Part shown: one piece after another, positions 6,578 to 26,007 of the stretch
How positions within the stretch are numbered: position 1 is the first letter of the stretch
Layout: every line of letters begins with the position of its first letter
Assembly (NCBI GenBank): GCA_040007555.1
Contig: JBDTUW010000001.1
Span: forward strand, 1-26,007
DNA from: Acidobacteriota bacterium
Lineage (GTDB): Bacteria > Acidobacteriota > Blastocatellia > RBC074
Direction of reading: 5' to 3'
Length of the DNA: 26,007 nucleotides
Notes under the pieces: generated by a model
What the model was told of the DNA's origin: nothing
Seen by the model: the letters and a program-made list of their open reading frames with translations, nothing else
The model's database searches: none
Program-made: the position numbers and the translations under genes

Positions 6578-8908
6578 TCACCGTCCCAATCGGATTCTCA
6601 GGCCACCCCGAAAGAGACGCGGCGCGCCGATCGTCTCGATTGGGGTTCTGCCTACGGCGTAGCGCTGATTGAGCACATTCTGCACAGCAAAGAAGGCATC
6701 GACAGTTTTCACCAGCCGTCTTTCGGCCATGAGGTCAATCAAGCTGAAGCTATCCAGCGGGAGACGATTCTGGTCGTCATCGAACTGCCTGCCGGAGGCA
6801 CGGAATTGCATGGCTGCGGTGATATACCTCGGATTGGAATACACCGTCTGCAATGTGAACTGATGCTGCGGCACCTGCGGAATCCAGAGCCCGACGAGAC
6901 GCGAGTCCTGCGGTGCCTCCAGAACGGTCGTATCCGAAAAGAGATATCCGGCGGTCAGATGCCAGTCTTCGGCCAGGCGAAGGTCTGATTCGATCTCGAT
7001 CCCTCGTGACCGCGTCCTGCCCAGATTCCGACGCTCGCGCGTGATCAGCGTCGGTGTAACCGTCAGTGTGAAGTTCGAAATTGGATTCACAGTCTCAGTC
7101 CAATACCCAGTCACGCGTGAACGCATCCGATCACCAACTTCCCAACTGGCACCCGCCTCACCGCCAGTCAAACGCTCGGCTTCGAGTCGTTCATTGGCCA
7201 CCGTCAGCGTGTCCCCAACTCGAAACGAACGGTATAACTCGTTCAGGGTAGGTGCGCGAAAGGCGCGATAGGCGGCGGCTCTGAGAGTTACGCCTTCACC
7301 GACGTGATAGAGGACGGCCACACGTGGACTGAACGCATCCTCGCTTCTCTCATCAAAGAAACGTGGTCTGACGACACCTGTCGCAAAAACCCGCTCAATC
7401 GAATAGGCCGATGAATCCCTCCAGTGATCGTAGCGAGCGCTGACCGAGACCAGCCAACGCGAAGTCAGAGAGATGATATCCTGCGCGAAAAAGCCACGCC
7501 GCCCTTGCCGGCCACCTGCGCTGACCAGTGAGGTTGGGATGCCATTCGTATAGACCTGCTCATCGCTGACGCCTCGAACACCGCGCAGATCCACACCGGC
7601 TAACAAAAGATGTTTCTCAGTGGTGAGACGTGACCAGGTAAACGAAAAGCCGGCGTCGCGCGAGGGAACTGCCTGCAAACGCGTCAGTGTCTCGCGGGCG
7701 CGGTCGGCCGTGACTGCGGTAAAGCTCTGGTGGAAACGCTGCTGGTTTCCAAAGAGGGAAAACTGCCAATTGCTCTTGTCCGGGCTTTGGAGCCGAAAGC
7801 CTGCAGCGGCAAACTCGCCGGTGGTGTCATTCCTTTGTACCGGCGTACCGTTCTTGCGGTCCTCGTCGAAAAGAGCCCCGCGCACAAAGACCGAGTTAGG
7901 CGCCTTGCCGGCTGTGCCTCCCCAACCTTTGGCGAGGCGCAGGTTAAGAGATCTGTGTTTCGATGCGGCATATTCATCGATCGGTCCTCGCCGTTCGGGA
8001 GCGACGATAAAGTAGCCGTCCGTCCGGGTCGCCTCACCGCTGAGATTGATCGACCAGTCATGCCAGGTGCCACCAGCAAACAAGCTGAGATCGGATGTGT
8101 CGTGGTTGCCGTAGCTGACTTCCGCATTGAGCACTGGTGCGGAGGGCGTTCGAGTAATGAGATTGATAACCCCGCTCAGCGCGTCAGACCCATAGAGGTC
8201 AGAGCTGCCGCCGCGGACGACCTCAACCTGTTCAACAGCGGCACGGGGAATACGATCCCAATAGACCCAGCCGCCGAAAGCATCGTTGAGCGGGAGACCA
8301 TCGGCGAGCACCAGGGTTCGGCTCGCACCACTTGCACCTGCTCCTCGTAGCGAGACACCCTGAGTCGTCGGGTTGGCGACGAGGCTGCTTGATCGGCGAA
8401 AGATGCTGAACCCGGGGACCTGCCGAAGCAGATCATCGAGCGTCTGCGCCGCCGCGTTCTCTACGTCTCGCGCACCAAGGACGGTGACACTTACGGGAAG
8501 CTCCTCAAGTCTGCGCTCGACTCGCGCTGGAGTGACCGTGACAACGTCGGGCAGCACGGGAATGGCCAGCGCCCAATCCACGACCAGGTCGCTGCGCGGT
8601 TCGACGGTGACTCGTTTGACCTGTTGGGCAAAGCCTCTTGCCTCTGCTCGGAGCAGATAATCGCCAGGTGCGAGAGCGAGGCGATAGCGTCCAGAGCTGT
8701 CCGTCTGGGCCGTGACCTCCGGGCGATCGCCGGCGGTTGCGAAAATGCTCGCTGAACCGATCGTGTCTCCCCGTTCATCCTTGACCTGACCCGAGACAGC
8801 GCCCTGATTCTGCTGACTTTGTTGAGCTCCAGCCTGCGAGCTACCGGAAGTGGAGGACACCAGCAGGAACGTGGTGAGAATGATGGATAACGGCGTATTG
8901 AGGAGCAT
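6578..8908 (-). CDS. TonB-dependent outer-membrane receptor with N-terminal carboxypeptidase-regulatory-like domain
   Basis: Signal peptide; G.V.D..G...T...G.Y.L beta-sandwich; TonB-box-like DVVTVT; plug motifs DLLRQVPG, VLADGLPLND, VEVVRGGSSDLYGSDALSGVINLIT; C-terminal barrel F.VQNVLN..Y...GAPRLFRGGLRIRL. Confidence 0.92.
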   Translation of the reverse strand: MLLNTPLSIILTTFLLVSSTSGSSQAGAQQSQQNQGAVSGQVKDERGDTIGSASIFATAGDRPEVTAQTDSSGRYRLALAPGDYLLRAEARGFAQQVKRVTVEPRSDLVVDWALAIPVLPDVVTVTPARVERRLEELPVSVTVLGARDVENAAAQTLDDLLRQVPGFSIFRRSSSLVANPTTQGVSLRGAGASGASRTLVLADGLPLNDAFGGWVYWDRIPRAAVEQVEVVRGGSSDLYGSDALSGVINLITRTPSAPVLNAEVSYGNHDTSDLSLFAGGTWHDWSINLSGEATRTDGYFIVAPERRGPIDEYAASKHRSLNLRLAKGWGGTAGKAPNSVFVRGALFDEDRKNGTPVQRNDTTGEFAAAGFRLQSPDKSNWQFSLFGNQQRFHQSFTAVTADRARETLTRLQAVPSRDAGFSFTWSRLTTEKHLLLAGVDLRGVRGVSDEQVYTNGIPTSLVSAGGRQGRRGFFAQDIISLTSRWLVSVSARYDHWRDSSAYSIERVFATGVVRPRFFDERSEDAFSPRVAVLYHVGEGVTLRAAAYRAFRAPTLNELYRSFRVGDTLTVANERLEAERLTGGEAGASWEVGDRMRSRVTGYWTETVNPISNFTLTVTPTLITRERRNLGRTRSRGIEIESDLRLAEDWHLTAGYLFSDTTVLEAPQDSRLVGLWIPQVPQHQFTLQTVYSNPRYITAAMQFRASGRQFDDDQNRLPLDSFSLIDLMAERRLVKTVDAFFAVQNVLNQRYAVGRTPIETIGAPRLFRGGLRIRLGR

Positions 8909-9793: not shown

Positions 9794-11497
9794 TTACAGG
9801 TTGCCCCGTTTGGTTTCGTCGACAATATACTCGCAGGCTCGCATTGTGAGAGCCAGGATGGTCAAGGTAGGGTTCTGGTTCGCCGAATTGATGAACGCTG
9901 CCCCGTCGGTCACAAACACATTCCTTACGTCGTGCATCTGATTGAACTTATTGAGGACGGATCGCTTGGGGTCGTCGCCCATGCGGGCAGTCCCGAGTTC
10001 GTGGATGATCCGTCCTGGCGCGGTCATTCTCCCTCCGGTGTCCGTCACCTCTGCGCCTGCAGCGCGGAGGATTTCCTCACTGGTCTCGGCAGCGTCCTTC
10101 GCCATTTCGCGTTCGTTGTCAGAATGCTGGATGTGGATTTTTAGCGCCGGCACACCCCAGGCGTCGACTACCCCGCCCGGATCGATCTCCGCGAAGTTCT
10201 CAAACCGTGAAAGCATCGCGGCGCGCGTCGTCATACTTACCGGAGCAGTGTAGTAACGACGCACCTGGCGCTTGAAGTCACTGCCAAAGCCTGGCAGGTT
10301 TCGAGCGACGCCCGGGAAAATCCCGGTGCCTGCCCCGCATTCAAAGCCATATCCACGAAGAAACCTCGGGTGCTGTGTCTTCTTGTCCAGATTACGGAAG
10401 CGAGGCACAAAAAGCCCCGACGCTTTCCCGTCTTCATATTCGGGTGTTCGTCCTTCGAGGACCTTGAAGAACCCGCTCGCCCCGATACCGCCGAAATGAT
10501 CAACCAGGTAATGCCCAAGAACGCCCGAGGAGTTGCCCAAACCGTTTGGATATTGTCGAGATTTTGAGTTGAGCAGCAGGCGGGTCGACTCCAGCGTGGA
10601 AGCCGCGACAATGATCACCTTTCCAAACGCCTCCCGCTCCTGATACGTCACCCGATCGACGAACGCGACACCTTTCGCCTTGCCGGTCCTGGTATCAACG
10701 ATGAGCTCTCGAACGACTGAGTTGGGGCGCAGGGTTAGGCGCCCCGTAGCCTTTGCTACTGGCAGCGTCGAAGCCACGGAATTGAACATGGCGCCAACGT
10801 CACAGCCGTTGCCGCAGTGACCACAATAATGGCAAACAGCGCGACCGGACTTCTGATGTACGGGTTTCGAGGCCGTCAACATGGCGACTCTCGAGACGAT
10901 TGCAGGGCGGCCCGTTTTCTCGGACCCGCGCCTGAGCATGTGCTCGCCACAGGTCAGCTTCATCGGCGGGAGAAACTTGCCGTCCGGCTGAAACCACAGA
11001 TTGTCCTGGTTGCCACTGACTCCAATGAACTCTTCGGCGCGATCGTAGTAGGGGGCGATCTCAGCGTAGCTGATCGGCCAATCGACATCGAAGCCGTCTT
11101 GACTGGCAGCCTTGAAATCGAGATCCGAGAAACGCCACGAAAGGCGGCCCCAATGCAGCGTCTTACCACCAACTATCCTGGCTCGGACCCAGACAAATGG
11201 TTTGCCTGGATCAGTCGTATATGGATGCTCAGTGTCCTTAACATAGAAGTGGCGGCTATACGCCGAGGCGGTGTCCTGCATCCATTGTTCATTCTGCTTC
11301 CAGCCGGGCGGGCCCGCACCACGGTACATCATCTCGTAGGGCCACTTGTGCGAGGTAAAGTCCCTCGCCGGATCGACCGGTGGGCCAGCCTCGAGCACCA
11401 GCACTTCAAACCCGGCCTCCGTCAACTCCTTGGCGGCCATCCCGCCCGAGGCGCCCGAGCCGACAATGATTGCGTCGTAGGTCTTTTGCCTTTGCAA
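9794..11497 (-). CDS. GMC-family FAD oxidoreductase (glycoside-3-dehydrogenase / gluconate-dehydrogenase-like large subunit)
   Basis: YDAIIVGSGASGG Rossmann motif, RARIVGG.TLHWGR, WPISY.EIAPYY..AE, Cys cluster CHYCGHCGNGC, HELGTARMG, NPTLTILAL. Start set at TTG 11497 (GGAGG 5 nt upstream) instead of 11575. Confidence 0.9.
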   Translation of the reverse strand: MQRQKTYDAIIVGSGASGGMAAKELTEAGFEVLVLEAGPPVDPARDFTSHKWPYEMMYRGAGPPGWKQNEQWMQDTASAYSRHFYVKDTEHPYTTDPGKPFVWVRARIVGGKTLHWGRLSWRFSDLDFKAASQDGFDVDWPISYAEIAPYYDRAEEFIGVSGNQDNLWFQPDGKFLPPMKLTCGEHMLRRGSEKTGRPAIVSRVAMLTASKPVHQKSGRAVCHYCGHCGNGCDVGAMFNSVASTLPVAKATGRLTLRPNSVVRELIVDTRTGKAKGVAFVDRVTYQEREAFGKVIIVAASTLESTRLLLNSKSRQYPNGLGNSSGVLGHYLVDHFGGIGASGFFKVLEGRTPEYEDGKASGLFVPRFRNLDKKTQHPRFLRGYGFECGAGTGIFPGVARNLPGFGSDFKRQVRRYYTAPVSMTTRAAMLSRFENFAEIDPGGVVDAWGVPALKIHIQHSDNEREMAKDAAETSEEILRAAGAEVTDTGGRMTAPGRIIHELGTARMGDDPKRSVLNKFNQMHDVRNVFVTDGAAFINSANQNPTLTILALTMRACEYIVDETKRGNL

Positions 11498-11556
11498 AAT
11501 TGCCTCCGGATAGATTGGCGATGATTCAATAGTCTTGAGAAGAACCCGGCAAGCAG

Positions 11557-11585
11557 AAACTAGCACAGCCCACATGCCGGATCAA
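11557..11585 (-). promoter_or_regulatory. Candidate sigma70 promoter of the GMC operon
   Basis: Minus strand TTGATC-N17-TAGTTT with TG one base before the -10 (extended -10); supports the TTG start at 11497. Confidence 0.4.
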
Positions 11586-12123: not shown

Positions 12124-12177
12124 TCTCACTCGCATTGGTTGCCAGGACTCAGGAAAAAAAGGAAAGGGAACGCAACG

Positions 12178-12777
12178 ATGTCAGACGATAACAGTGTCTC
12201 GCGACGTGATGCTCTCAAGGGACTGGCGATCGGCCTCAGTCTCCCAGTGCTGAATACCAATGCACTCGCGCAGCAGGGTCATTCCCACGAGGGTCACGGT
12301 GCCTCCACACAGACTGCGGAGGTAAAGGCCGGGCCACCAAAGTTCTTTAACGCACAGCAGATGACGCTGATTGCGACGATCTCAGAGTTGATCATTCCGA
12401 CCGACGACCACTCACCCGGTGCCATCGCCGCTGAAGTCCCTTCATTTACCGATTTGATGGTCAGCGAGTCTCCTGCCGAGACCAAGAAACTCTGGACCGA
12501 TGGCCTGGCCGCCGTCGATGCCCTCAGCCGAAATAAGAATCAGGCAGCATTCGACAAGGCGACTGCCGCTCAGCAGATCGCACTCCTGAGCGAAATCAGC
12601 AAGAATGAGAAAAGCCCGCAGACTCTTGAAGAGCGCTTCTTCCGCGCCATCAAGAATATGACCATCGATGGTTACTACACATCGAAGGTCGGCATCCACC
12701 AGGACCTGCAGTACAAGGGAAACACGTACCTCAAGGAATTCAAGGGGTGCACACACCCGGAACACATTAACGGTTAG
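12178..12777 (+). CDS. Gluconate 2-dehydrogenase subunit 3 family protein (Tat-exported partner of GMC enzymes)
   Basis: Twin-arginine signal SRRDALKG, His-rich linker, family motifs FF...Q..LI..I.ELIIP.D..SPGA..A.V..F, FF..IKNMTIDGYYTS.VG; start set at ATG 12178. Confidence 0.85.
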   Translation: MSDDNSVSRRDALKGLAIGLSLPVLNTNALAQQGHSHEGHGASTQTAEVKAGPPKFFNAQQMTLIATISELIIPTDDHSPGAIAAEVPSFTDLMVSESPAETKKLWTDGLAAVDALSRNKNQAAFDKATAAQQIALLSEISKNEKSPQTLEERFFRAIKNMTIDGYYTSKVGIHQDLQYKGNTYLKEFKGCTHPEHING

Positions 12778-12858: not shown

Positions 12859-15849
12859 CTAGATGCGATACTTTCTCATAAGCAGGAAGGTGTAGACTTC
12901 GGCGCCGAGCGCGAGTATCCCGCGTACGACCATGAGCGTGGATAATCCGAATTGCTGAAAGATCAGGCCGGCGACTTGTGGGAAGATGAGGTCTGACGAG
13001 TCTACACCCAGTTCGAGGATACCCATCGTCCTCCCGCGGCGTGCGAGATTAAAGCTCGAGACTTTGGCGGCAACCGCACCCCAGGTTGGCTTGAATGCGG
13101 CCTTTCCGATCTCGTCGAGGCCTCGCGCGAATCCGAGCATGACTCCAAAGAACACGCTCCCGGTAAAGAAGGACGTGACCCAGAATACCACTGAAGTGAC
13201 GATGCTCGAGATCGACCTGAGCGCGATCACCTTTCCGGCACCGATGCGATCCGCCACCCAGCCAAAAAATGGACCGAAGAAGAGCGGAATGAACATCTCG
13301 GCGATGAGTTTGATCCACCATAGTGCCTTGGCCGTCACTGAGAGCTTGACTGCAAGTATGATGAAGAACTCGCCGGTCACCATATACGCCGGTGCAGTCA
13401 GGACAGTGCCAAGAAAGGCGAATGCCCAGACACTCGGGGCCTTCTCGGTTGGCGCCTCGACAATGTCCTGGTGGATTTCCGGCTGTTTCTTTTTCGACTT
13501 TTCTTTCTTCTTCTCCTTGATAAAGATCATGACGAGGACGACCGACACTGCCGAGAAAGCGGTCGACAGCAGGAAGATCATCGTCAGCGTCTTCCGAAGG
13601 GCTAACCCATCGACCAAGTCTGGCAGGTTGTCGAGAGGTACTTCGCTGAGCTTGACCTGACGTTCCTCGACTCGAATGATACGTTGGCTGGCGACCTCCG
13701 CTGGAATCGATTGTTCGCCCGCTCGTCCGATGATGCGCTCGACTTGTCCTGTTGGCCGGGAGGTGTCTTCGATGATGGCTACTCTCGCGTTGATCGTTGG
13801 ACTCGCTATAAAGACAGCGAGCAGGACAGGCAACAACCAGATTGTAAGAGTCTCGCCAATACTACCCGATGTCGATTTTGTGGTTGTGTACCACGAATAC
13901 GCCTTTGCGATGTTCTTTTCGTCCGTATGATCGGCAATCATCGCCGAAGCCGAAGGTCCTTTTGCGGAATCGGCGATGCCGCGAATGGCGCTTGCGATAA
14001 AGAGAAGCGGAAGATTGGCAACCGCAAATAGCAGGCTGACAACGGTGCGAGTTACGAGCGACAAGACGAATATCTTCTTTTTCCCAAAACGATCCGCCAT
14101 TCCCCCAAAAAGCGGTCGAAGCGCCAGCGGTACGACGTTCTGGATCAGTACCAGCCCCATCACAGAACTGATCTTCAGATTGAAAACCAGCAGCGCGTAC
14201 AGGGGAACCCCGATCTTAACCAACCCGCCCGAGACTCGCGAGAGGAAGGCCTCTGCCATGAGTGCAATCACAACAGGGCTGAAGACGCCACCTCCCTTCT
14301 CCTCCGCCTCGGCGACCACCGTCGGGAAATATGCCTCGCCGGCGGCAACGGGAGCGGGCGCGCTTGGAACCACAACGGGTCTGACAGAGAGAAGGCCGGT
14401 CGCCTTCTGGATGACATTTCCGAAGACTCCGCCGTTGACACCGGCGGCGGCTTCAAGTTCCGCGGCAAAATGCAGCGCAGTCGGCTGCCGCTGGGCAGGC
14501 TCCTTTGACAGGGCGCGGTTGACTACGGCCGCGACGCTCTCGTCAAGATCCGGCCGACTCTCCGAGAGATCAGGTGGGGCGAAACTAATGTGTGCCTGCG
14601 CCATCTCGGCACGCGTGGCTGCGTTGAAGGGGAGCGCGCCGGTCAATACTTCAAAAAGCATGACGCCGAGAGAATAGACATCGGATCGCGAGTCCAGTGG
14701 GCGGTTGAGCCACATCTCCGGCGACATGTATGCCGCTGGTCCTTCCGCGCTCGCGACGCCTGCCATGGTTCCGCCTGCGCCCGCGCCCGCATCGAGTTTG
14801 GCCAGTCCGGTGCTGCCAACTTTGACCACCTCGCGGCCATCCACCAGTCGCTCAATGCGAATCGTGTCCGGAGTTACATCGCGAAGTACGATCCCACTCA
14901 AATGGGCCGCGTGTACCGCACCGCAGATCTGATTGAAAATACTCACCACTCGAGAGAGGGTCAGTCCTCGCTCAGCCTTTATCAGATCCCGCAGTGTTTG
15001 CCCGCTGAGTAACTCCTCGACAATATATACGGCGCCATCCGGCGAGGTAACAAAGTCAAATATCTGGACAGAATTTGGATGACGGATTCGCGTGGCCACC
15101 AGGGCTTGACGCCGGAACCGGTCGAGCGCCTGCCGGTTGTTTATCAGCGAAGGTCGCAGGATTCGGATCGCGACAGTATCGCCAAGAGCAATCCGCCGCG
15201 CGCGGTAAAGAGCGCCAAGTGAATCGTGACCGAGCAGTGCCTCGAGCCGGTAACGGCCATCAAGCGCGAGACCCTGGGATCCCACCACTTCGGCCGGCGC
15301 TGAAGGCAGCGCCAGCTCACCGGTTGCCTGGACCGAGTAGGCGGAGCGTGCCACAACTGGTGGCTGCGCTGGTGCCCTCGGTGGAGAGTGAGGAACGTCG
15401 AGTCTGACCTCGGCGGGGTCTCGCACCGGCTCCTTTTTTAGCGGCACAGCCTGATAGACAAGCTTCGTACGGCCGATCTCGATCTGGTCGCCCACGCGCA
15501 ACGCGTGTTCGCCAGGCCCAAGACGCTTGCCATTGATCAGGACGCCATTGGTGCTTTGAGTGTCGCTGAGGAAATAGTGGCCGTCCTGAAACTTGATTTG
15601 CGCGTGATGGCGGCTGGCGGCCTTATCTGAGAGGACAATAGTGTTGTCCTGCGCGGCGCCAATCGAGACGAGCGCCCCCGTCAGAAGCAGCTCGCGCTGC
15701 TTCCCGTCAGGCAGATGCAGGATGAGACGCGACGCCTGCGAAGACCGGGCCGGTCTTGAAGAAGCGGCCACAATGAGGCGAGTGCCGTCGGTCGTGCAGA
15801 ACTGTTCGTTATCAGCGTACTCGTGGTGGCAAACCGAACACAGTTTCAA
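12859..15849 (-). CDS. Fusion protein, 996 aa: zinc-ribbon-like leader, FHA domain, Ser/Thr pseudokinase, 12-TM MFS transporter
   Basis: TTG start with GGAG RBS; CxxC...FCxxDG (aa 4-22); FHA aa ~41-133 ([14 protein letters not shown]); Hanks fold aa ~200-468 (HPN, YMSPE, SDVYSLG..LFE.LTG..PF) with catalytic motifs altered; MFS aa ~524-996 with motif A in both halves ([22 protein letters not shown]). Confidence 0.9.
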
Positions 15850-15871
15850 CGAATTCTCCGGAATAACGCAT

Positions 15872-15902
15872 GAGTTTCATACCGCCGGATCCCGTGAAAC
15901 TC
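15872..15902. other. 8-bp inverted repeat just upstream of the fusion gene
   Basis: GAGTTTCA (15872-15879), 15 nt, TGAAACTC (15895-15902); operator or mRNA hairpin, function unknown. Confidence 0.3.
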
Positions 15903-15961
15903 GTCTGGTCGGATGAAATCGAAAAGTTGTGTTTTTGAGAACCTTGATCGATGGCGAAGAA

Positions 15962-17524
15962 CTACTTCTTGCCCTTCTTCTTCTTCCCGCCATTGCCCGC
16001 CGCTGCCTTCTCCCCGGTCGTGCTACTCGCGACTACGGGTGACGGCCCGGACGCATTCATCGCCCGGTTGATATCGGACCAGCGATAGACAGCGATACGG
16101 TAGTTGCACTGATCCGCGATCGCGACATAGGTCTCACCCGATGCTGCGTCAGTATGGCTCGCAATCGCGTCGGGCGAGCAGAAGTATCCGGGTGGATTTG
16201 CCTGTCCTGGGATAATGGAGCCGTCCTTGACCCTTTGCTGAAGGGCGACATTGGTCTTGTCTTCAAAATTCACCAGCGGTGGATGACCGAAGAATCCGCG
16301 ATAGGCGGTAGCCTTGCGCGGGCGCGCCGAGTAGGCCGCAATATCCGAATTGAAAATGTCCGGGCGGGCCAGCTCAAATATCTGAATCTGTCCGACGCTC
16401 TCGTCAACGGCCAGCAAGTGGCTGCCACCGACAATCGTCAGTCCCTCGATCGCGCCGGAAAATACTGACGAGCCTCCGGGCAGGCCATCCGCTCCAAGCG
16501 ATTTCCCGACCAATTGGTTTTTGTAGGCACCGGTTTCGAGATCGAATACCTGGACAACCGCATCCTTCTCACTGGCGATATAGAGGTTTCCGCGAGTTTC
16601 GTCGAATGCGATTCCCTCGCAGCCGTGGAGATACGTGCTGCCATCGGGACGGGCCTGTTCGAACTTAAAGCTCGGATCCAGCCTGAAGTCAGATGTGAAC
16701 CGCTTCACCTCATTCAGATGTGCATCTACCAGGTAGACGCGGCCCTGAGCATCCACTGCAATTCCACCGAGTTTGCCAAAGCCTTGTTCGCCGAAACGCG
16801 TACCTTTGAATTGAAAGTCATAAGGTCCGAGGGGCTTGCCCTTTTCGTTTACGGCACCAGGAGTTGGCGGCTCAAAGAGATACGCCAGATTGAGAACCTG
16901 GTCGGTGACGAAGACCTTGTCATCGGGTGTGACCGCGATGTCGACCACTTCTCCGCCAAAGACGCCGTGACCGAACTCACCGAGATAGGTCCGCGATTGA
17001 ACGTCCCATATCTGAATGCGCCTGTTCTTCGCGTCTGTTGCGAGCAGCCAGCCATTCTTGAGAAATGCGACACCGTCCGGTTTGTCGAAGTCTGCCGCAG
17101 TCTTGCCGGGGCGGCCACTACCGAGGACCGAGTGAGGCGTGACCTCAAGGCTCCAAACAGACTTTGCCTGAGGAGCAGCTGCAGCGACCGGCTGCGATGG
17201 AGCGGGGCGAGCAGCTACCGGCGGAGCCGCCTCAGGTGCGGCGGGTGCCGCGACCGCGGCGGGTGCCGCGACTACGGCGGGTGCCGCGACTACCGCTGGT
17301 GCCGCGACTACGGCGGGTGCCGCGACTGCGGCGGGTGCCGCGACTACGGCGGGTGCCGCGACTGCGGCGGGTGCCGCGACTGCCTCCGCCTGTTTCTTCT
17401 TTCCTTTCCCCTTCTGCTTCTTTTGAAGCGAAACGGGTGTGGCATTCGACGTGCCGGGCAGAGCAGTCGCCGCGAACGAGCCGAAGAGAACGGAGATGAT
17501 GAGGAACTTAAAGTATGGTTTCAT
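15962..17524 (-). CDS. Secreted NHL-type beta-propeller protein with Ala/Pro/Val repeat linker and Lys-rich ends
   Basis: GAGGAGG RBS; signal peptide; (VAAPA[AV])x8; about six blades ([57 protein letters not shown]...IADQCNYRI). Confidence 0.85.
17238..17381. repeat. Coding tandem repeat, 8 x 18 bp (consensus RCGGCGGGTGCCGCGACT)
   Basis: Eight consecutive units counted directly; encodes [12 protein letters not shown] on the minus strand. Confidence 0.95.
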
Positions 17525-17582
17525 GAAGGGGCCTCCTCGCGACCGGCACAGGCGTGCGGTTGTTGGGTTAAAAATCGGGAGA

Positions 17583-17611
17583 AGTCTAGCCGCTGGACCG
17601 GAGATTTACAA
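17583..17611 (-). promoter_or_regulatory. Candidate sigma70 promoter of the NHL / FHA-pseudokinase-MFS unit
   Basis: Minus strand TTGTAA-N17-TAGACT, immediately after the terminator that follows the phytase. Confidence 0.5.
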
Positions 17612-17614
17612 CTG

Positions 17615-17665
17615 AAAAGGAAAAGCGCGCCAGATGTGATCCTTAACGATCTCACCCCGGCGCGC
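17615..17665 (-). terminator. Rho-independent terminator after the phytase gene
   Basis: GCGCGCC/GGCGCGC stem (17625-17631 / 17659-17665) with partial inner pairing, followed on the minus strand by TTTTCCTTTT. Confidence 0.55.
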
Positions 17666-17689
17666 AGTTCGATTCCCGTTGGCCCTTGT

Positions 17690-18916
17690 CTATTGGCTTC
17701 CAGCGCGATGCTTCCGCAGTACGTCCGCGCCCAGTATCCTGTCGAGAGGAACCAGCTTGAAGTTTTGATTACCCTTGTCGTTGAAGCCGTCCTGCGCGAC
17801 AAAGACTCCATGCGGGAACGCTGGACCGAGGGGCGCCATGAGGACATCGATGCCATCAGTCTCCTCCGCGCCGTCAACCGATTCCGACGGGATGATACGG
17901 AACGTCTTAACGAAAGCGTGCCCTGCCTCCCGGCGATACACGACATAGGTGTGATTGCCCTGACTCGAGGCCATAAGGAATCCGGTGCCGTCCGGTCCAT
18001 AAGCAATCGCTAGTCCTTCGACATCGGCGACCAGGTGGCCGCCCGGGCCGGTCTTATCTACCTGCTTTCTCTCCTGACCAGTCTCCGGCTCCGCTCCGTA
18101 CTTCCAGATCCCGACAGCTTCTTCTGAAACGTAGAAGTGACCCAGCTCATCGTCGGCGACGCAGCCTTCGACAACGCTGCCTACATTGAAAGCTCTCACC
18201 TTCTTGCCGTCGACCTTGCCTTGTCCATTATCAAAAAGCTCCCACTGTTCAACATTACCGGTCTTGCCGGTGACGAAATAGTAGACCTTTTCCGTTTTCG
18301 GATTGCGGTACATGCAAGAGCCGTAGGTCGCCATCGTGGTGATAGTTCTGGCCGCGACATTCTCAAGCTGACGCGTCTGTGGGTTGACGCGAAAGATTGA
18401 GATCGAATTGTCGGTGCGATTCCCACCCGTGACGAGGGCAATTCTCTCTCCACCGAGCTTGAATCCAGCCCGAAGATCGACGTTGTCAATCATACCGGCC
18501 TTCAGATACTGCAGTTCCTTACCGGAAAGATCGTAAACCGCCAGGCCGCCGCGCTTGTCAGTGCCGATGATCGTGCTCTGGGAAATATCGTTCGGATTGA
18601 CCCAGATGGCCGGATCGTCGGCCGCATCACCAGGGCTTGGCACTGGGTGCGTTTCTACAGAAGCTGTCACGCTTTCAATTGTCCGACCGCTGGGATCTGT
18701 GGTGTTGCCAGCTGTCATACTGACCGAGGGCGCCGTATTCTGCCTTTGAGTCAAGCTACTGGACGAACTCGATTTGCTGCTCTTTTCGTGCTTTTTCTCT
18801 TTCGGCTTGTCCTTCGCCTTCTCGTCCTGACCAAATACCGCCATCGAAAGCAGCGTCATTAATACCAGGGCGAGCGAGGCGACCATCTTTCTCTCATTCC
18901 TTCTACTGACGGTCAT
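17690..18916 (-). CDS. phy: Secreted beta-propeller (Ca-dependent, Bacillus PhyC-type) phytase
   Basis: Signal peptide; hallmark motifs [71 protein letters not shown]. Confidence 0.93.
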
Positions 18917-19024
18917 AATCCGGGGTCCTTTCCATTTGCATTTACTTATCTGCCAGGGTCGCTCTCTTCGATGACATAAGTGGCGGCTGGTGTTGCCAGA
19001 TAATCGGCACCGGCTAAATTAGTT

Positions 19025-19867
19025 TCAGGAATGGTCGAGAATAAACCTGGAAATCCGGTCACCGCCACCTGGTACACCCTTAAACCCCGGAAAACAATTG
19101 ACTTCTATTACCGAGTAGCCCTTTTTGGTCTTCACCAGATCGACACCGTAGAGCTGCAGCCCAAAGAGTTCTCCGCACCGTCGAACCAGATCCTCCAGTT
19201 CGGGGTCGCTCTCGACCGGTATCCCGTCCTTCTCGGCGCGGGTCGTTGCCGGAAATATTCGCTTGATGGTATGAACGAAATCACCGACAGCATACGCTTT
19301 GTAGTCGTAGGGTTCGTGTTCTTCGTACTCCTGGGCAAAAACCAGGCGATCGCCGAGTGCGGTGCCGTCCTCGCCTCCGTCGTCATCCGCGGGAGGTGTT
19401 TCAGCGGTGCGTTTCTCGAGGAGCCGGTCGAAGTCGGCCTCGGTCAGGCAGATCTCGATGCCCTGACCTCGTCGCCCTCGATACGGTTTAACGATGACAG
19501 GCATCTGTTGAACGATCGGGCGCAATGTCTCGATATTGTCCGTCACAAACGTCCTGGGCGTGGGAATCCCCGCCTGCAAAAGCATGGTGCAGGTCAGGAC
19601 CTTGTCGCGGACCTTCATGGTCGCCGGATACTGGTTGAGCAGTGTGCAGCCGCGAAAGTGGGCGGCCGCAGCCAGCGACTCCGCAAGTGGAGAATGGGAT
19701 TTGAAGAGATAAAGATCATAGTCGAAGGCGAAGTTCCCGAGGTCGACAAGCCCGGTTCGCTCGGTGACGATCTCAACATCGGCGCCACTCGACTTCAGTC
19801 CTTCAATGATTTGATACGTCACTGAACTTGGACTTCTTGGCGGTTCCATCAGAAAGCAAATGCGCAT
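19025..19867 (-). CDS. ATP-grasp enzyme 4 (ITPK1-like motifs; would be auto-annotated RimK-like), 280 aa
   Basis: [65 protein letters not shown]; start set at ATG 19867 (GGAG RBS) instead of 19936. Confidence 0.88.
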
Positions 19868-19945
19868 TGTTGGTCTCCAGGTCGGTTTGTGGAAAACATC
19901 AGGTTGACTATCACGGGAGTGCCCCGTCCTATTCAATTCAATATG

Positions 19946-19991
19946 CGATGGTCATTATTCGATGGCAATTATTCGATGGCAATTATTCGAT
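19946..19991. repeat. Tandem repeat, 3 x 14 bp plus 4 (CGATGGCAATTATT)
   Basis: CGATGGTCATTATT, CGATGGCAATTATT, CGATGGCAATTATT, CGAT; overlaps the MFS stop codon. Confidence 0.9.
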
Positions 19992-21224
19992 CGGCCGGAT
20001 TACTGGTTGCGGAGTTCCCGCGGGAGCCGGCGTGTTGATTCTCAATGCATAGACCTCGCCGATCAATGCCAGAAGCAGTCGCACCGCAAACAATACAGGT
20101 ACTCCCCAGAAATGCCACAGCAGGCCGCCCAGGATTGGTCCGAGGGTCTCTCCCAGACCCTCCCCGAGACTGAGGAAGCCCATCGTTCTCGCTCGCCTTC
20201 GCCGGTCGTGATTTGACATCTGGGCCATGAGCGCGCCCCAGGCAGGGCGAAACGCTGCCTTCCCCAGACTGTCCGCAATACTCGCGACAGCCATCCCACC
20301 GAATGATGGCAGCAGCCAGTAGAGCAGGGACGAAACCGAATTCGCAACTCCCCGCACCATAAGGACCGCCTTGCGACTGACATTGTCAGAGAACCAGCCG
20401 AAGAGTGGACCGGAGACGAGCAGTATTGCGACCGAAAGGGCGTAGATCAAACTTGTCTGAGCGACACTCAATCCGGCGTACTCGGTCGCGAGCAGCGGGA
20501 AGAGCTGCTGTACCATATGGGCCGTGGTGGCCAGCAGGAATCCCAGGACAGCCACCGAGAAGAGCGTTCTTCGTCGCGGTTTCGCGTCTGTCATCAATTC
20601 CGCCGCCTGCGCGGCCATCTCATCCCCAGAGCGTTCTTCTTCATGCCTCCGGGGTGAGCGAACGTATCGGACCACGACATACAATGGCAGGACCGACAGC
20701 GTGAATGCGATGAGAAAGACCGTCGAGTAATTGGTTCCGGTCCAGACCAGCAGCAGCCCGCCAAGCGCCTTCCCGATCGAACCTGCGACCATCTTGGCTG
20801 TCGAATACCACGCGAATGAAGAGCCCATGGTTCGCGGTTCGCTGTTCTCCGCAATCAGCGCATTGACCGATGGGTCTCGTAAAGACTCTGAAACTCCGTG
20901 GAGCAGCCGAATGCTATAAACCTGCCACGGTAGCGTTGCGAACGCGAGCAGGAGTGCGACTGCGCTCCGTAACGCGATTGCAACGGTCAGACTGAGTCGC
21001 AGCCCAACCCTATCGGCAACCCATCCCATCAGTGGCTTGAACACCTGCTCAGCGATGAGATTGAGAGAAAAGAGAAAACCAACCTCGGTCAGGGTCAGTC
21101 CCAGCTTGCGGTAGGCATAGAGCGGCAGCGCGAAGCTGATAATCCCGAAACTCAACCGCGAAGAGAAGCCTTCCGAGAGAATGGCAACGAGCGATGGGTT
21201 GATTGGTTTCCGGCCCGAAAGCAT
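19983..21224 (-). CDS. MFS transporter, 413 aa, paralogue of the MFS domain in 12859-15849
   Basis: About 12 hydrophobic segments; motif [11 protein letters not shown] and [10 protein letters not shown]; colinear shared motifs with the fusion protein. Confidence 0.92.
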
Positions 21225-21284
21225 CGACCGTCTCTTCCGCCCTCGTTTGCCGCGTCCTCGCAGACAGCCGGAGCCCCTTTAGCG

Positions 21285-22133
21285 CTAGTCCGCTGCCACG
21301 CCCCGGGGAACGCTCGGTGCGCCGGGAGACCTCAGTTCAAACCTGCCCTGGGCGTAGCCATCGATGTAATCGGCAATCATGATCGCCGCATCTGGCACGC
21401 CCTTGTAGCCGGGGAAGTAGTTGACGTCGACAACAAACGGGCCGTCCGGACTTTCGATTATGTCCAGACCATAGAGACCGAGACCGCACACTTCACCGAC
21501 GCGAAGAGATATCTGCCGAATTTCCTCGCTGATGGGCACTGGCCGGCCCGCTACCGCAAAGCTCGTTTCGGAGAACGGCTTTTGAACGCCAAACACCTGG
21601 TCACCAACAACGTAAACCTTCAGGTCCTCACCCGAACCGGGTTTGAATTCCTGAACGATAACCGGGAAGTCCGGAGCCGTGTGCTTTGAGAGCTGCTCGG
21701 GGTTATCCACCTTGATAATTCCCGCGCCTCGATGTCCCATATAGGGCTTGATGATCAGCGAAGTTGTCGCGGCCAGATCTGCCAGAAGGGAGAAGTCCCC
21801 CGTCACCCAGGAACGCGGCGCCGGAACCCCAGCTTCACGCAAAAGCCTTGAGACGATGATCTTGTTTTGAGTCATTGCGCAGGAAGGGTACGGATTGAGA
21901 AGCCGCGCGCCCTGAGTGTAGAGCACCCCCGCCAGACCCAAAGACAGTTCAGTATGCGATTTCAGGATATAAAGGTCGTGCTCAACCTCGACCGCATCAC
22001 AGGGTGTGAGCACCTCCTCAGCGATACTCTCGACGATCTCGTAACCGCGCTTTCGCAGCAGATCATAGGCCTCAACCAAAATCGGACTTGGTACGGGTGG
22101 GACCCGACGGACGACTAGAAAAGACAGTTTCAT
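21285..22133 (-). CDS. ATP-grasp enzyme 3 (closest to ITPK1-type motifs), 282 aa
   Basis: [70 protein letters not shown]. Confidence 0.9.
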
Positions 22134-22153
22134 TCGTTCACCTCAATGTAGAC

Positions 22154-22972
22154 CTACGCCAGATATTCAACTGAAGGGCGACTTAAGTAATCAGTAATGT
22201 AGTCGGCCAGCCGCAGGCCGGCATCCGGAACGCCCTTGAATCCCGGGAAGGTATTAATGTCGACCACATATTCGCGACCGCCGCTGATGACGATATCCAG
22301 ACCGTAAAGATCGATCCCAAATGCTTCGCCGCAGCGATCGGAAATCTCGAGCATCGATGGGGTTAGTTCAAACGCCTCGCCAAGCTTGTCCTCGATTGTT
22401 CGCGCCGGCCAGACACGCCGGACGCCGAATGAGGAGTTCCCGATGCGATATATCTTGTAGTCGCGACCTTCCGGTTGATGATACCGCTGCGCAAAGAACA
22501 TCCCCTGGTCTTGAGACAGGGTCTCCAATTCCTCACGCGTCCGGACAATCTGGACGCCGCGCCCCTGCGATCCTCCCAGATAGGGCTTGACCACGAGCGG
22601 TCCCTCATCGAGCAGGTTGGCAAGCTGCGACGCCTCCGAGGCGATGAAGGCTTCCGGCGCCGGCACTTCAGCATCTGTAAGAATCCGGTTCGCGAGGACC
22701 TTATCCTTCATCTGGATGACGACTTCATAGGGATTGAGAATCCGCGCACCCGCGACGTCGAGAACCGAAGCGTAGGCGAGGGCGGCAGGTGTCCCCGCCT
22801 TGAGGACATACAAATCATAGTCGACATCAAGGCTCCCGACATCGATGGCGGAGTCGTCCGGATAGATGAATTCCAGGGAATGCCCACGTTCAGCGAGCTT
22901 TTCCCCGACATCCATCATAACCGAGCCCTCACGGCCCGGCTTTTTTCGCGTTGTCAACAGACCCACTCTCAT
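22154..22972 (-). CDS. ATP-grasp enzyme 2 (ITPK1-like motifs), 272 aa
   Basis: [73 protein letters not shown]; ATGA overlap with the upstream gene. Confidence 0.9.
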   Translation of the reverse strand: MRVGLLTTRKKPGREGSVMMDVGEKLAERGHSLEFIYPDDSAIDVGSLDVDYDLYVLKAGTPAALAYASVLDVAGARILNPYEVVIQMKDKVLANRILTDAEVPAPEAFIASEASQLANLLDEGPLVVKPYLGGSQGRGVQIVRTREELETLSQDQGMFFAQRYHQPEGRDYKIYRIGNSSFGVRRVWPARTIEDKLGEAFELTPSMLEISDRCGEAFGIDLYGLDIVISGGREYVVDINTFPGFKGVPDAGLRLADYITDYLSRPSVEYLA

Positions 22973-23799
22973 CTCGCGCGTTCCTCCCGCGCCCGGGTGG
23001 CGACATAATCCGCCAACCGATCATCCGCCTCAGGAACGGACGTGTAGTTGGGGAAATCGTTGATTTCGATGACAAGCGGACCCGCCGCGCTCAGAATGCA
23101 GTCGACGCCATAGAGCTCGAGACCAAATATCTCTCCACATCGCCGGCCAAGAGCCTCGAGTTCCGGTGTCAGTTCGAGCTCGCCTGCCCTCGATTCCTCA
23201 TCTGCTCGTCGCGGATTGAAAGGCGAAGGCTTGAGGATGGCCCAGACTTTGTCCCCGATTCCGTATAGCTTTAGGTCATAACCGTCGGTCTGATGATAGC
23301 TCTGCGCCAGCGCCACCGGTTCAGGCCAATCAACAGTTGCCATTTCGTCGGGTGTCCGGACCACCTGCAAACCACGGCAGTTGTCGCCAAATATTGGCTT
23401 GAGGATCAGCGGGTAGTGATCAATTGCGACCTCTCTCGCAAGCTCTGAGGTTGCCCCAAGGTAGGTTTGAGGCGTGGGGAGATCGCTGCCAGCAAGCGCC
23501 ACCGCCATATTTGCCTTGTTGTGAACGGCTGCAATCGCATCGCGTCGATTGATGGTCGTGACGCCACGGTCTTCCGCCCATCCGAGCAGGCAGAGCAGGC
23601 CCCAACTTCGGCCACGGCCGACGATCAGATCGAGCCCCTCGAGCCACGAATCATCTCCCATTGTGAAGAGAGATGCTTCCGGATCAATGAGCACGATGTC
23701 GTGGCCAGCCTTCCTCAGGGCGGTGAGCATGCCACTCGGCTGGCTTTGTGCAAGGTAGCGCTTCTCGGCGAGTACGCCGATTTTCAAATGGTCACCCAT
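22969..23799 (-). CDS. ATP-grasp enzyme 1 (most divergent paralogue), 276 aa
   Basis: DLIVGRGR, TINR, HNK, LILKPIFGDNCRG, AQSY, DLKLYGIGD, LYGVDCI, IEINDFPNY.SVP. Confidence 0.88.
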   Translation of the reverse strand: MGDHLKIGVLAEKRYLAQSQPSGMLTALRKAGHDIVLIDPEASLFTMGDDSWLEGLDLIVGRGRSWGLLCLLGWAEDRGVTTINRRDAIAAVHNKANMAVALAGSDLPTPQTYLGATSELAREVAIDHYPLILKPIFGDNCRGLQVVRTPDEMATVDWPEPVALAQSYHQTDGYDLKLYGIGDKVWAILKPSPFNPRRADEESRAGELELTPELEALGRRCGEIFGLELYGVDCILSAAGPLVIEINDFPNYTSVPEADDRLADYVATRAREERAR

Positions 23800-23927
23800 A
23801 TTATTGGTTTCGAGTCTGACGGTACCGAATTCCGGAAAACGGGCCCGGAAAGTCCAGCGTATGAAAGGATCTCGCTGTCCGGATCAACCGGGCTCCGGCG
23901 AAATAGCGATGCTCCATCGAGCGGGGG

Positions 23928-23955
23928 ATTATAGAACGTTCGCGCGACGGGACAA
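23928..23955 (-). promoter_or_regulatory. Candidate sigma70 promoter of the ATP-grasp/MFS/phytase operon
   Basis: Minus strand TTGTCC-N16-TATAAT (perfect -10), about 120 nt upstream of ATG 23799. Confidence 0.55.
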
Positions 23956-23964
23956 AGGAAAATA

Positions 23965-23993
23965 TTGATCGGCAAGGAGTACTGGTGTAATCT
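23965..23993 (+). promoter_or_regulatory. Candidate sigma70 promoter of the FHA-TPR gene
   Basis: TTGATC-N17-TAATCT; its -35 lies 9 bp from the -35 of the divergent promoter. Confidence 0.55.
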
Positions 23994-24062
23994 GCCCGCT
24001 GATCAAGATCATCGGGCGGCTTTCACAAACGGGCGGATCGAGGTGGTGAGGAAGCGATTTCT

Positions 24063-26007
24063 ATGGGATTGCGTGCGGAGCTTCATCTGACAGGAAATGG
24101 CGCATCCCAGGTCTATGTTCTCGACGTGCCTCGCCTCACGGTCGGTCGAACTCGCGAGAACCACGTGACCATTGCTGACCCGGCAATTTCTCGTCATCAC
24201 GCCGAGTTCATTCGCTTGGGCAACGACGTCCTTCTGCGCGATCTGGGCTCGACGAACGGAAGCTACGTCAATGGCCTCCGTATTTCCGAACAGCTGCTCA
24301 ACGATGCTGATATCGTCCGCTTTGGACCACAGGGTCTGGAATATCGATTCGCCGTGCTTGACGATAGCGGTGCGCTCCCGGCTAATGTCCAGCGGCGGGA
24401 GCCTACCGGCAGCCTCATCGAATCCCTTTCTGGCCGTCTGGTTTCCAGTCCCGGCGACGTCTGCGAAGACGCTAGTCTCCGCTGTGTACTCGCCGAGGCT
24501 TACCTCACGAAGGGTGACCATCGGGAGGCGCTCAGGCTTCTGACGCGATATGTCGACCCAGTCTCGCTGCTTGCACTTCCACTCGCCTATCGATCCAGTG
24601 TTCTGCTCTGGCTTGGACGAGCCTACGTCGAGGGTAAGCAACTCCCGCTCGCTCTCGAGACCCTCGAACGCAGTCTGAATCTCGCGACAAAAGAAGATGA
24701 CGAGAACGCCGTTGCCGAGGCCCACGCCTCAATTGGCAGGGCGTTTATGGGACTGAAGGACCTGCTCGCGGCGCGCGACAATCTCAACCGAGCGATGCTC
24801 ACCGCCAGACGCGGCGGCAACGCCCGACTTGGTGCTGAAGTTCATCTATGGCTTGGCAAGGTTGACTGGAAGGATGGCGATTTCGACGGCGCGCGTTACA
24901 ACTGGACGCGTGCGACGCGCTTGGCCGAGGGTCTGAATGCGCCGCTGCTCCAGGCCCGAGTTCAGCTTCAGCAGGCGTTCGTCCTTTACGCCGAAGGGAA
25001 GCTCAAGGAGTCGAGCCCGAGCTACGAGGCAGCGATTGAACGAATTCAGGCGATTGGTAACCTCCCCCTTCTGCTGAAGGCATACAGTAGCCATTCGAGG
25101 GTGCTGGTGAGACTGGGCCAGTGGTCAGCGGCCGAACGGCTCCTTGACGAACGCCTGACAATGGCGCGCAAACATAAGATTAATAAAGCGGAGGCAGTCG
25201 CCTTAACCGACAATGCGGAGCTCGAACTCCTGCAGGGCCGGTTGCAGGGAGCGGTGACTGCCATCGAAGCCGCGTGTGAAAGTCATGGTGAACATGTCTA
25301 CGCGCGGACACAAAGGATTCTGGGCCGCATCCTGATCGTTCGCGGGCAGGTTCAGGAAGGGATCCGCGCGCTCGACATGGGGCTTGTTGCCTCCCGCGAG
25401 AATGGAGCACTCGAGGAGCAGATTCTGATCGGTGTTGAACTGGCGCTTGCGCACCTCGATGCCGGTGATGTCGCCACGGCTCGCCTGCGTCTTGATGAAG
25501 CCGAGGCGACGACGCCTCTGGATCCCGCGCTGACTCTCATGGGGCGCGCGCTTTTTGCACGAGGCAGCGTTTTCGCGGCAGCCAACCAGCTGGCCGAGGC
25601 AAATCGCTCATTCGCACAGTGTCTCGCGATCTTCCAGACGACTGGTGATCCCTATCGAGTCGGCCTCTGCCAGGCCGCGATAGGTGAACTCCGCGCGATG
25701 GCGGGCCGTGACGATTCCGCTCGCGCCCATTTTGAGGAGGCTCAGCGGCAGTTCGTCAAGCTTGGGGCTGTCGCCGAATTGAAACGGGTGGAGGCGCGTC
25801 TTGCCTCGGGCGGCATCGCGCACGCCGCACCACAAATGACGCAAATGACGACTCGGCTGTCAAAGACGGCTCGGCTTTCGCTCGAGCACTTGACCGCCAC
25901 ACTCAACACCGGTGCCCTCACTTCGCCGACTGCCTCGAAGATTCTGGTCGTTGTCGCCAATGATGATCTGGCGCTCCTGCTGCTCAAGGGTCTTGAAGTG
26001 GAGAATT
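24063..26007 (+). CDS. FHA domain, TPR array and start of a receiver-like domain (partial, more than 648 aa, runs off the window)
   Basis: Hand translation of frame +3 from ATG 24063 (GAGG upstream, in-frame stop at 24000) gives no stop to the window end: VGRTREN...ISRHHA...DLGSTNGSYVNG...DADIVRFG (FHA); roughly ten TPR-like helical repeats by eye (e.g. LLWLGRAY, HASIGRAF, HLWLGKVD, RILGRIL); ends KILVVVANDDLALLLLKGLEVEN. Missing from the ORF track because it lacks a stop. Confidence 0.88.
   Translation, partial: MGLRAELHLTGNGASQVYVLDVPRLTVGRTRENHVTIADPAISRHHAEFIRLGNDVLLRDLGSTNGSYVNGLRISEQLLNDADIVRFGPQGLEYRFAVLDDSGALPANVQRREPTGSLIESLSGRLVSSPGDVCEDASLRCVLAEAYLTKGDHREALRLLTRYVDPVSLLALPLAYRSSVLLWLGRAYVEGKQLPLALETLERSLNLATKEDDENAVAEAHASIGRAFMGLKDLLAARDNLNRAMLTARRGGNARLGAEVHLWLGKVDWKDGDFDGARYNWTRATRLAEGLNAPLLQARVQLQQAFVLYAEGKLKESSPSYEAAIERIQAIGNLPLLLKAYSSHSRVLVRLGQWSAAERLLDERLTMARKHKINKAEAVALTDNAELELLQGRLQGAVTAIEAACESHGEHVYARTQRILGRILIVRGQVQEGIRALDMGLVASRENGALEEQILIGVELALAHLDAGDVATARLRLDEAEATTPLDPALTLMGRALFARGSVFAAANQLAEANRSFAQCLAIFQTTGDPYRVGLCQAAIGELRAMAGRDDSARAHFEEAQRQFVKLGAVAELKRVEARLASGGIAHAAPQMTQMTTRLSKTARLSLEHLTATLNTGALTSPTASKILVVVANDDLALLLLKGLEVEN

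Follow-up and report, generated by a model that had tools for sequence, protein, structure and literature searches.

To our knowledge, ATP-grasp kinases of the ITPK1 type have so far been known only from eukaryotes and Asgard archaea, and higher polyol phosphates are regarded as a eukaryotic, and lately also Asgard, chemistry, with bacteria seen as degraders of these compounds. Beta-propeller phytases, which act on Ca-bridged neighbouring phosphates, stop at inositol trisphosphate (InsP3) and do not proceed to the free polyol. In Lokiarchaeum, pairs of ITPK1 homologues (LcIKA-D) flank inositol-phosphate synthase genes, and some Asgard homologues restored synthesis of inositol hexakisphosphate (InsP6) in yeast (PMC6900528). 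The bifunctional MtlD protein of Acinetobacter is a mannitol-1-phosphate dehydrogenase/phosphatase that serves mannitol synthesis (PMC9168451). Here we describe a bacterial gene cluster that brings together paralogous ATP-grasp genes (AG1 to AG4), a transporter of the major facilitator superfamily (MFS), a relative of mannitol-1-phosphate dehydrogenase (M1PDH) and a secreted beta-propeller phytase. It was analysed on contig JBDTUW010000001.1 of the Acidobacteriota bacterium assembly GCA_040007555.1. The window is this entire contig of 26,007 nucleotides, and the source genome (5.45 Mb), that of a soil acidobacterium, is 93.6% complete and highly fragmented; the relatives of its proteins that carry a name belong to Acidobacteriota.

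The cluster resembles the soluble ITPK1 pathway and the Lokiarchaeum loci in that several ATP-grasp paralogues stand beside an enzyme that turns a hexose phosphate into a polyol monophosphate. This first enzyme is inositol-phosphate synthase there but M1PDH-like here, which would yield an acyclic hexitol phosphate. The AG proteins also form a separate clade, and an exporter and a secreted phytase belong to the unit.

We tentatively propose, with somewhat less than even confidence, that the cluster directs the stepwise phosphorylation of a hexitol phosphate by kinases, the export of the product and its trimming by phytase. The MtlD-like dehydrogenase would reduce fructose-6-phosphate or a closely similar compound, giving a hexitol phosphate akin to mannitol-1-phosphate, on which AG1, AG2 and AG3, joined by AG4 in Acidobacteriota, would act in succession. 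The ATP-grasps would most likely be ITPK1-like kinases, each phosphorylating its own position. The MFS transporter would carry the product out of the cytoplasm, with assistance in some lineages from MacAB/HlyD pumps or outer-membrane proteins, and the secreted Ca-dependent phytase would then trim the product or recover phosphate. Three additional proteins of Acidobacteriota (FHA-TPR-receiver, FHA-pseudokinase-MFS and an NHL propeller) would presumably provide control. In this proposal the genes present, their conservation and fusions, the intact motifs and the family ties of the proteins were observed directly, whereas the substrate, the kinase chemistry, the direction of transport and the role of the product are inferred.

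A gene cluster shared by several phyla

The cluster was found in about 90 loci from at least four phyla, with a core of three to five paralogous ATP-grasps, an MFS exporter and the MtlD-like gene. The arrangement AG1-AG2-(MtlD)-AG3-MFS is shared by Acidobacteriota, Myxococcota/Deltaproteobacteria and Propionibacteriaceae and is also present on many contigs from metagenomes. In the 22 complete loci, which are non-redundant and have both flanks present, the MtlD-like gene was found 19 times and the MFS gene 21 times. Recurrence in dozens of loci places this gene arrangement far beyond chance. The genes form a single conserved functional unit, and in this respect the sequence-only reading made earlier on this DNA is supported. 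The ATP-grasp family comprises about 238 clusters at 50% identity (E <=1e-30), and an embedding search suggests further members in Actinomycetota, Gemmatimonadota and Myxococcota; an AG homologue is annotated, in fragments, in Terrabacter aeriphilus. A full-text literature search found no publication on the cluster.

In the source genome the genes, called by open reading frame (ORF) listing and assigned to families by Pfam and NCBIfam scans, form a single block on the minus strand. Its first gene is AG1 (22969-23799; 276 amino acids [aa]), followed by AG2 (22154-22972; 272 aa), whose stop overlaps the start region of AG1, and AG3 (21285-22133; 282 aa), the best conserved of the four, with 63-91% identity across phyla. 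Next come the exporter-like MFS gene (19983-21224), encoding a protein with 12 transmembrane segments that matches MFS_1 at 178 bits, and AG4 (19025-19936; 303 aa), an extra copy specific to Acidobacteriota. The PF02333 phytase (17690-18916; E 4e-104), a secreted NHL-repeat beta-propeller (15962-17524) and a 996-aa fusion of a zinc-ribbon-like N-terminus with FHA, Pkinase and MFS domains (12859-15849) complete the block. A divergent FHA-TPR(-receiver) gene on the plus strand (24063-26007) is cut by the contig end and continues on contig C1064 (locus L036). Every gene previously listed for the region was thus recovered by the ORF listing and family scans. As to the back-to-back promoters that had been placed between AG1 and the FHA-TPR gene, one consensus-like site was found on the AG1 side (23928-23955, minus strand; TTGTCC-16-TATAAT, 10 of 12 matches), a consensus match only; no second consensus-like promoter was detected, and promoter-like sites overall showed no enrichment.

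Gene fusions tie parts of the cluster together. MtlD is joined to AG3 in protein P0125, found in two samples, and AG2 is joined to an IMPase-family phosphatase in P0163, found on three contigs from three samples, with the cluster MFS gene next downstream. A fusion of a receiver domain to an AG1-type protein is also present among metagenome proteins. The fusion proteins P0125, P0163, P0266 and P0132 are all of metagenome origin (loci L137-L142).

More distant associations were noted as well. One single-contig gene call joins an ATP-grasp to an ABC ATPase domain. An ESM Atlas query with AG3 returned a family of 757-aa proteins with about 200 members, commonest in Gemmatimonadota, that carry a glycosyltransferase-28 C-terminal domain; some members match PF05770 or RimK, and the model resembles the AG ATP-grasp fold, which hints that relatives of the AG proteins act on glycosides. 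A DUF5916-domain protein of about 750 aa lies in or beside non-acidobacterial clusters (L095:12170-14566, L097:4736-6928, L140:4023-6257 and four more loci) and may be an outer-membrane component.

The MtlD-like gene and the scaffold

On the 1.8 kb contig C1064 of the source genome, an MtlD-like gene (L036:275-1435; 386 aa) follows the end of the FHA-TPR gene. The upstream fragment (L036:16-237) encodes the last 74 residues of the FHA-TPR orthologue, corresponding to residues 672-745 of the L002 protein at 85% identity. The MtlD-like protein matches the E. coli-type MtlD 3H2Z over its full length (200 bits), and its KxxxxNxxH, DxxxR, RVxR and RxxxRKxxxx(E/D)R motifs are all intact. The last of these binds the substrate phosphate and is unique to M1PDH, as described in a structure study of Acinetobacter MtlD (PMC9168451). 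It is kept in 37 of 42 MtlD-like orthologues. The best score obtained by an MtlD-like protein against the NCBIfam M1PDH equivalog was 235 bits, below the cut-off of 368. By these comparisons the protein is a divergent member of the M1PDH family, its exact substrate not being assured.

The MtlD-like gene has AG2 and AG3 on its two sides in the loci of Myxococcales, Deltaproteobacteria and Propionibacteriaceae, and stands beside the FHA-TPR gene in Acidobacteriota. Because it is the constant companion of the ATP-grasps and carries M1PDH motifs, the scaffold is most likely a hexitol phosphate derived from fructose-6-phosphate. The Acinetobacter MtlD (PMC9168451) is alike in its M1PDH domain, its catalytic and phosphate motifs, its biosynthetic use and its fusion to the next enzyme of the pathway. 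However, the fusion partner there is a HAD phosphatase, whereas here it is an ATP-grasp, suggesting further elaboration of the hexitol phosphate instead of plain dephosphorylation.

In 21 of the 42 orthologues, mostly outside Acidobacteriota (e.g., L016, L047 and L053), Ser, Gly or Cys stands in place of the catalytic Asn of KxxxxNxxH, and at three loci Gln takes the place of the His. Most Asn-substituted orthologues retain the phosphate-binding Arg motif, and those with an altered Asn or His may have a slightly different substrate or chemistry. In one lineage of Blastocatellia (L004/L011, 7034-8095), the MtlD-like gene is absent within 8-10 kb of the cluster, and a gene of the isocitrate/isopropylmalate dehydrogenase family and an M28 peptidase gene are found immediately upstream of AG1. 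Complex prediction for the MtlD-like protein with AG3 gave a score of 0.00, which speaks neither for nor against an interaction.

The sequence-only reading had proposed inositol as the scaffold, with stepwise phosphorylation of myo-inositol or inositol 3-phosphate, export or else uptake and re-phosphorylation, and erasure of the product by the phytase. The ITPK1-like signal of the AG proteins and the close relation of the phytase to true phytate-degrading enzymes, both described below, fit this proposal. The inositol-3-phosphate synthase gene ino1 (PF01658) is moreover common in the class (35 of 41 relatives, with or without the cluster), so that inositol 3-phosphate would be available in most relatives. 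We did not find ino1 in the source genome (93.6% complete) or in a relative of the same genus, which may reflect a genus-level loss or assembly gaps; as evidence against inositol this absence is weakened by the near-universal presence of the gene in relatives and by the fragmentation of the genome. The case against inositol rests instead on linkage. ino1 always lies elsewhere in the genome, was absent from all cluster neighbourhoods examined and does not co-vary with the cluster. The gene that travels with the ATP-grasps, embedded among them or fused to one, is of the M1PDH type. We conclude that inositol is probably not the scaffold and consider its phosphorylation by this cluster improbable.

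D-Mannitol is two-fold symmetric, and three position-specific kinases (1/6, 2/5 and 3/4) would therefore suffice to take mannitol-1-phosphate to a hexakisphosphate. We may speculate that these three symmetric positions match the three ancient AG paralogues. It is conceivable, though less likely than not, that several soil phyla make and secrete mannitol polyphosphate, an acyclic analogue of phytate, with the AG proteins as a bacterial sister group of ITPK1. If so, mannitol polyphosphate would be the native substrate of many cluster-adjacent "phytases," and the AG proteins would mark, in bacteria, the point at which inositol-phosphate kinases and ATP-grasp ligases of the peptide type part. A widespread, exported phytate-like compound of bacterial origin would change the view of bacteria as degraders. 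It would also be an unrecognised source of soil organic phosphorus, much of which is unidentified phosphomonoester.

Phytase and ATP-grasps: kinases or ligases

The phytase matches PF02333 over its full length (349 bits; cut-off, 21) and the Bacillus phytase structures 3AMR/1H6L at 285 bits. Its DAADDPAIW motif is intact and its signal peptide was confirmed, in agreement with the intact-looking enzyme first seen on this contig; it also has a Ser/Lys-rich linker. Phytases of the Bacillus PhyC/TS-Phy type share this signature motif and a secretion signal with it, as well as about 50% identity over the aligned catalytic domain. Unlike them, the present enzyme appears to be linked with an exporter and with a pathway that consumes ATP in the cytoplasm, and not only with phosphate scavenging.

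The adjacency of phytase and ATP-grasps, on which the earlier reading depended, was checked in other genomes and is conserved in several independent arrangements. The phytase gene comes after AG4 in most Acidobacteriota loci and after a MacA/MacB pump in L070; in L045 it is encoded on the other strand, and in L053/L057 (E 3e-81) it sits embedded among the AG genes. In the family of the source genome (f1), 15 of the 16 genomes with the cluster also have a high-scoring phytase, which shares a contig with it in 12 or more, and one of the nine without the cluster has a phytase, a divergent one; these counts are descriptive, since related genomes do not count as independent. A phytase without the cluster is present in three genomes from other families. 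Since the product of the dehydrogenase has a single phosphate and phytases recognise neighbouring phosphates, the AG proteins are the only candidates in the unit to add phosphates. This argument from the phytase substrate is indirect, and it is the strongest that we have for kinase chemistry.

AG1 to AG4 are members of the ATP-grasp superfamily with its three-domain fold. All four and their orthologues retain the Lys that binds ATP, the Gln of the hinge and the Mg ligands D...D/E-x-N, and an AlphaFold2 (AF2) model of AG3 (pLDDT, 85) matched many ATP-grasp structures in Foldseek with a probability of 1.0. A rooted tree showed the AG proteins to be monophyletic relative to RimK-type outgroups, with the Asgard ITPK1 homologues (LcIK) as their sister on a long branch. 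They fall into three ancient orthogroups, AG1, AG2 and AG3, in addition to the Acidobacteriota-specific AG4. As a means of telling kinases from ligases, the tree gave no functional resolution.

Several features lean toward kinases. The ITPK1 profile PF05770 matches the AG proteins at 25-42 bits against a cut-off of 23 bits, covering only profile positions ~130-200 of 201; AG1, which matches the Pfam RimK profile at 33 bits, scores 25.5 bits in its C-terminal part only. In a profile search of PDB sequences, the ITPK1 match is concentrated in the C-terminal Mg/substrate region. In the source genome these four genes are the only PF05770 matches, and none was found in 14 control genomes, though 13 of them have RimK-domain proteins. 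The Asgard ITPK1 homologues give mostly equally partial matches (20-54 bits), and their hhalign comparison with the AG proteins yielded a score of 206 (E 5e-30; 251 columns), whereas LcIK and RimK aligned with a score of only 89. The specificity of PF05770 and the hhalign result show the ITPK1-type signal of the AG proteins to be real, in support of the earlier reading. The motifs VxG[VI]x[KR]P and DxNxFPG[YF]KG are common to the AG proteins, ITPK1 and LcIK. The conserved inositol-phosphate contacts of ITPK1 are H167, K199 and R212 (PMC6900528). The K199 equivalent is Lys (K172) in AG1 to AG4, with 90-100% conservation in each orthogroup, the R212 equivalent (position 185) is Lys or Arg, and the H167 equivalent (position 134) is variable (D, S, H or R). 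The AG proteins resemble ITPK1 and LcIK in their C-terminal DxN-FPGY Mg/substrate motif and in the basic K199 and R212 positions, which RimK shares, and they resemble the Asgard homologues in the strength and extent of their PF05770 matches.

The likeness to known ligases is limited in two respects. On TIGR00768 (rimK_fam), the AG proteins score 72-85 bits, far under the cut-off of 143.4, whereas true archaeal relatives of RimK/MptN reach 181-211 bits; against LysX they score 63-74 bits (cut-off, 275.6). The loop motif [WF][RK][TS]NxxxGG, which the alignments of RimK, LysX and archaeal RimK contain, is absent from AG1 to AG4 and from LcIK, and the corresponding region of AG1 to AG4 is a shorter segment with low model confidence at residues 189-191. 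The same motif occurs in glutathione synthetase, where it starts a flexible loop that shields the acyl-phosphate intermediate. Matches from Bathyarchaeia and Thorarchaeota in the genome scan were rejected as ITPK1 homologues, being ordinary RimK/MptN proteins.

The paralogues differ systematically in loop residues. Positions 134-135 are DN in AG1, SQ in AG2, HR in AG3 and RR in AG4, and among the four AG4 is richest in basic loop residues (R134-R135 and K195). These differences would fit distinct, increasingly anionic substrates.

The AG proteins could instead be ligases of the RimK/LysX type that couple amino acids or other carboxylates to one another or to the hexitol-phosphate scaffold, as amides or esters. 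The product would then be a small molecule, an anionic solute or a metal chelator; after dephosphorylation it would leave through the MFS transporter and possibly be re-imported through outer-membrane receptors, with the phytase nearby because both serve phosphorus or metal acquisition. We regard this as a serious alternative, though clearly short of an even chance. RimK, LysX and MptN are the best Pfam, NCBIfam and PDB sequence matches of the AG proteins, and LysX/ArgX their top Foldseek matches, the ester-forming PsnB and MdnC also scoring. RimK, LysX, ArgX, MptN and CofF, ligases of the alpha-L-glutamate type, share with them a three-domain ATP-grasp of about 280 aa and the glycine-rich loop KPxxGxxG. 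However, the AG proteins occur without a carrier-protein, ribosomal or cofactor context and always as three to five paralogues with M1PDH and MFS genes. A hexitol phosphate has neither a carboxylate nor an amine, the short intergenic gaps fit no carrier-protein or precursor-peptide gene, and the sole sizeable gap held no convincing ORF for either. The low rimK_fam scores and the missing loop motif also speak against ligases, and the Ca-dependent phytase embedded within the cluster in L053/L057 would be left unexplained. Even if the AG proteins were ligases, the cluster would still encode an undescribed exported metabolite in at least four phyla.

A number of observations weigh against phosphorylation of the hexitol phosphate. 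In searches of PDB sequences the profile scored RimK (7QYS) at 80 bits, LysX at 61 and ITPK1 at 49, and hhalign scored the AG proteins higher with archaeal RimK than with LcIK (239 versus 206). The modelled fold gave TM-scores of 0.71-0.77 with LysX/RimK versus 0.63-0.71 with ITPK1. The ITPK1 N-terminal domain (Ins134_P3_kin_N) was not detected in the AG proteins by Pfam at E 0.01, and AG1 weakly matches LysX_preATP_grasp. These results and the RimK-like KPxxGxxG loop lean toward ligases, and the K199 and R212 positions are basic in RimK too and thus not discriminating. The AG2-IMPase fusion fits a ligase pathway of the type "condense, then dephosphorylate," as in compatible-solute pathways, equally well. 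The phytase is missing at about half of the loci outside family f1, and the loss of phosphorus through a secreted product of this kind seems expensive for bacteria living in soil. The cluster MFS resembles drug and siderophore exporters and not organophosphate carriers. Its nearest solved structure is the DHA1 exporter NorA, with weak matches to siderophore exporters; GlpT and UhpT were not among its PDB matches, and PgtP aligned at 85 bits (cut-off, 408) over the N-terminal half only. We know of no precedent for polyphosphate export by such a carrier.

Two further comparisons did not discriminate between kinases and ligases. In Foldseek, LysX/ArgX, RimK and ITPK1 (maize, potato and human) all matched AG3 with E values of 1e-17 to 1e-15, and the three lie within one order of magnitude of E-value. 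A three-way alignment contained five well-conserved discriminating columns, of which two pointed to LcIK and three to RimK, and was uninformative. By their profiles and motifs, the AG proteins form a family of their own between the RimK/LysX ligases and the Asgard ITPK1 homologues, for which kinase activity is plausible.

Direction of transport, control and neighbouring genes

HlyD/MacAB pumps, DUF5916 proteins and TonB-dependent receptors recur near the cluster in different lineages, suggesting that the product crosses the outer membrane; such a recurrence would also suit an exported and re-imported ligase product. A catabolic role would reverse the direction of transport. Secreted phosphatases would free polyols from organic phosphates of the environment, the MFS would import them, the ATP-grasps would act as polyol kinases of differing specificity and the MtlD-like enzyme would oxidise the hexitol phosphate to fructose-6-phosphate. 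M1PDH can indeed work in either direction and serves catabolism in mtl operons of the E. coli type (PMC9168451), and the MFS has weak sugar-porter matches. However, one kinase would be enough for this purpose, yet three ancient paralogues are co-conserved, and ATP-grasp enzymes are typically biosynthetic. The proximity of the MFS to exporters and the MacAB/HlyD efflux pumps found with the cluster in some lineages also argue for export, and phytases that stop at InsP3 would not supply a free polyol. We consider catabolism the least likely of the explanations weighed here. Synthesis and export of a polyol phosphate remains our preferred reading.

The FHA-TPR-receiver, FHA-pseudokinase-MFS and NHL propeller genes are found only in loci of the Acidobacteriota type. 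In the kinase domain of the FHA-kinase-MFS protein, GHDSLG replaces GxGxxG, VAIR replaces VAIK, Gln replaces the alphaC Glu, LRDVTPDT replaces HRDxxxxN and STG replaces DFG. The same losses are found in 10 orthologues, and the protein is thus a conserved pseudokinase, as had been suggested. The second propeller, previously described as phytase-like, proved to be of a different kind. It is not significantly similar to the neighbouring phytase by BLASTP (E 1.5), its PF13449 score of 26.9 falls below the cut-off of 27.6, and among solved structures the NHL domains of TRIM71 come closest to it; we therefore assign it as an NHL-repeat propeller. It has a long, repetitive Ala/Pro/Val-rich linker after the signal peptide (residues ~45-120; window 17200-17440), and its C-terminal tail is rich in Lys. 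A role in sensing or control may be presumed for this protein and for the pseudokinase-MFS fusion.

The cluster is flanked by a minus-strand gene for an FAD oxidoreductase of the GMC family (9794-11575) and a plus-strand gene for a gluconate 2-dehydrogenase subunit-3-like protein (12139-12777), and this pair also flanks the cluster in L002 and L009. The two could contribute to a periplasmic dehydrogenase for sugars or polyols whose substrate would be the product once dephosphorylated, or reflect mere local synteny. A TonB-dependent receptor that begins with a CarboxypepD_reg domain is encoded at a distance of about 4 kb (6578-8908), and similar receptors are found near the cluster in L002 and L099. 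The product, or a metal complex of it, may be taken up through this receptor.

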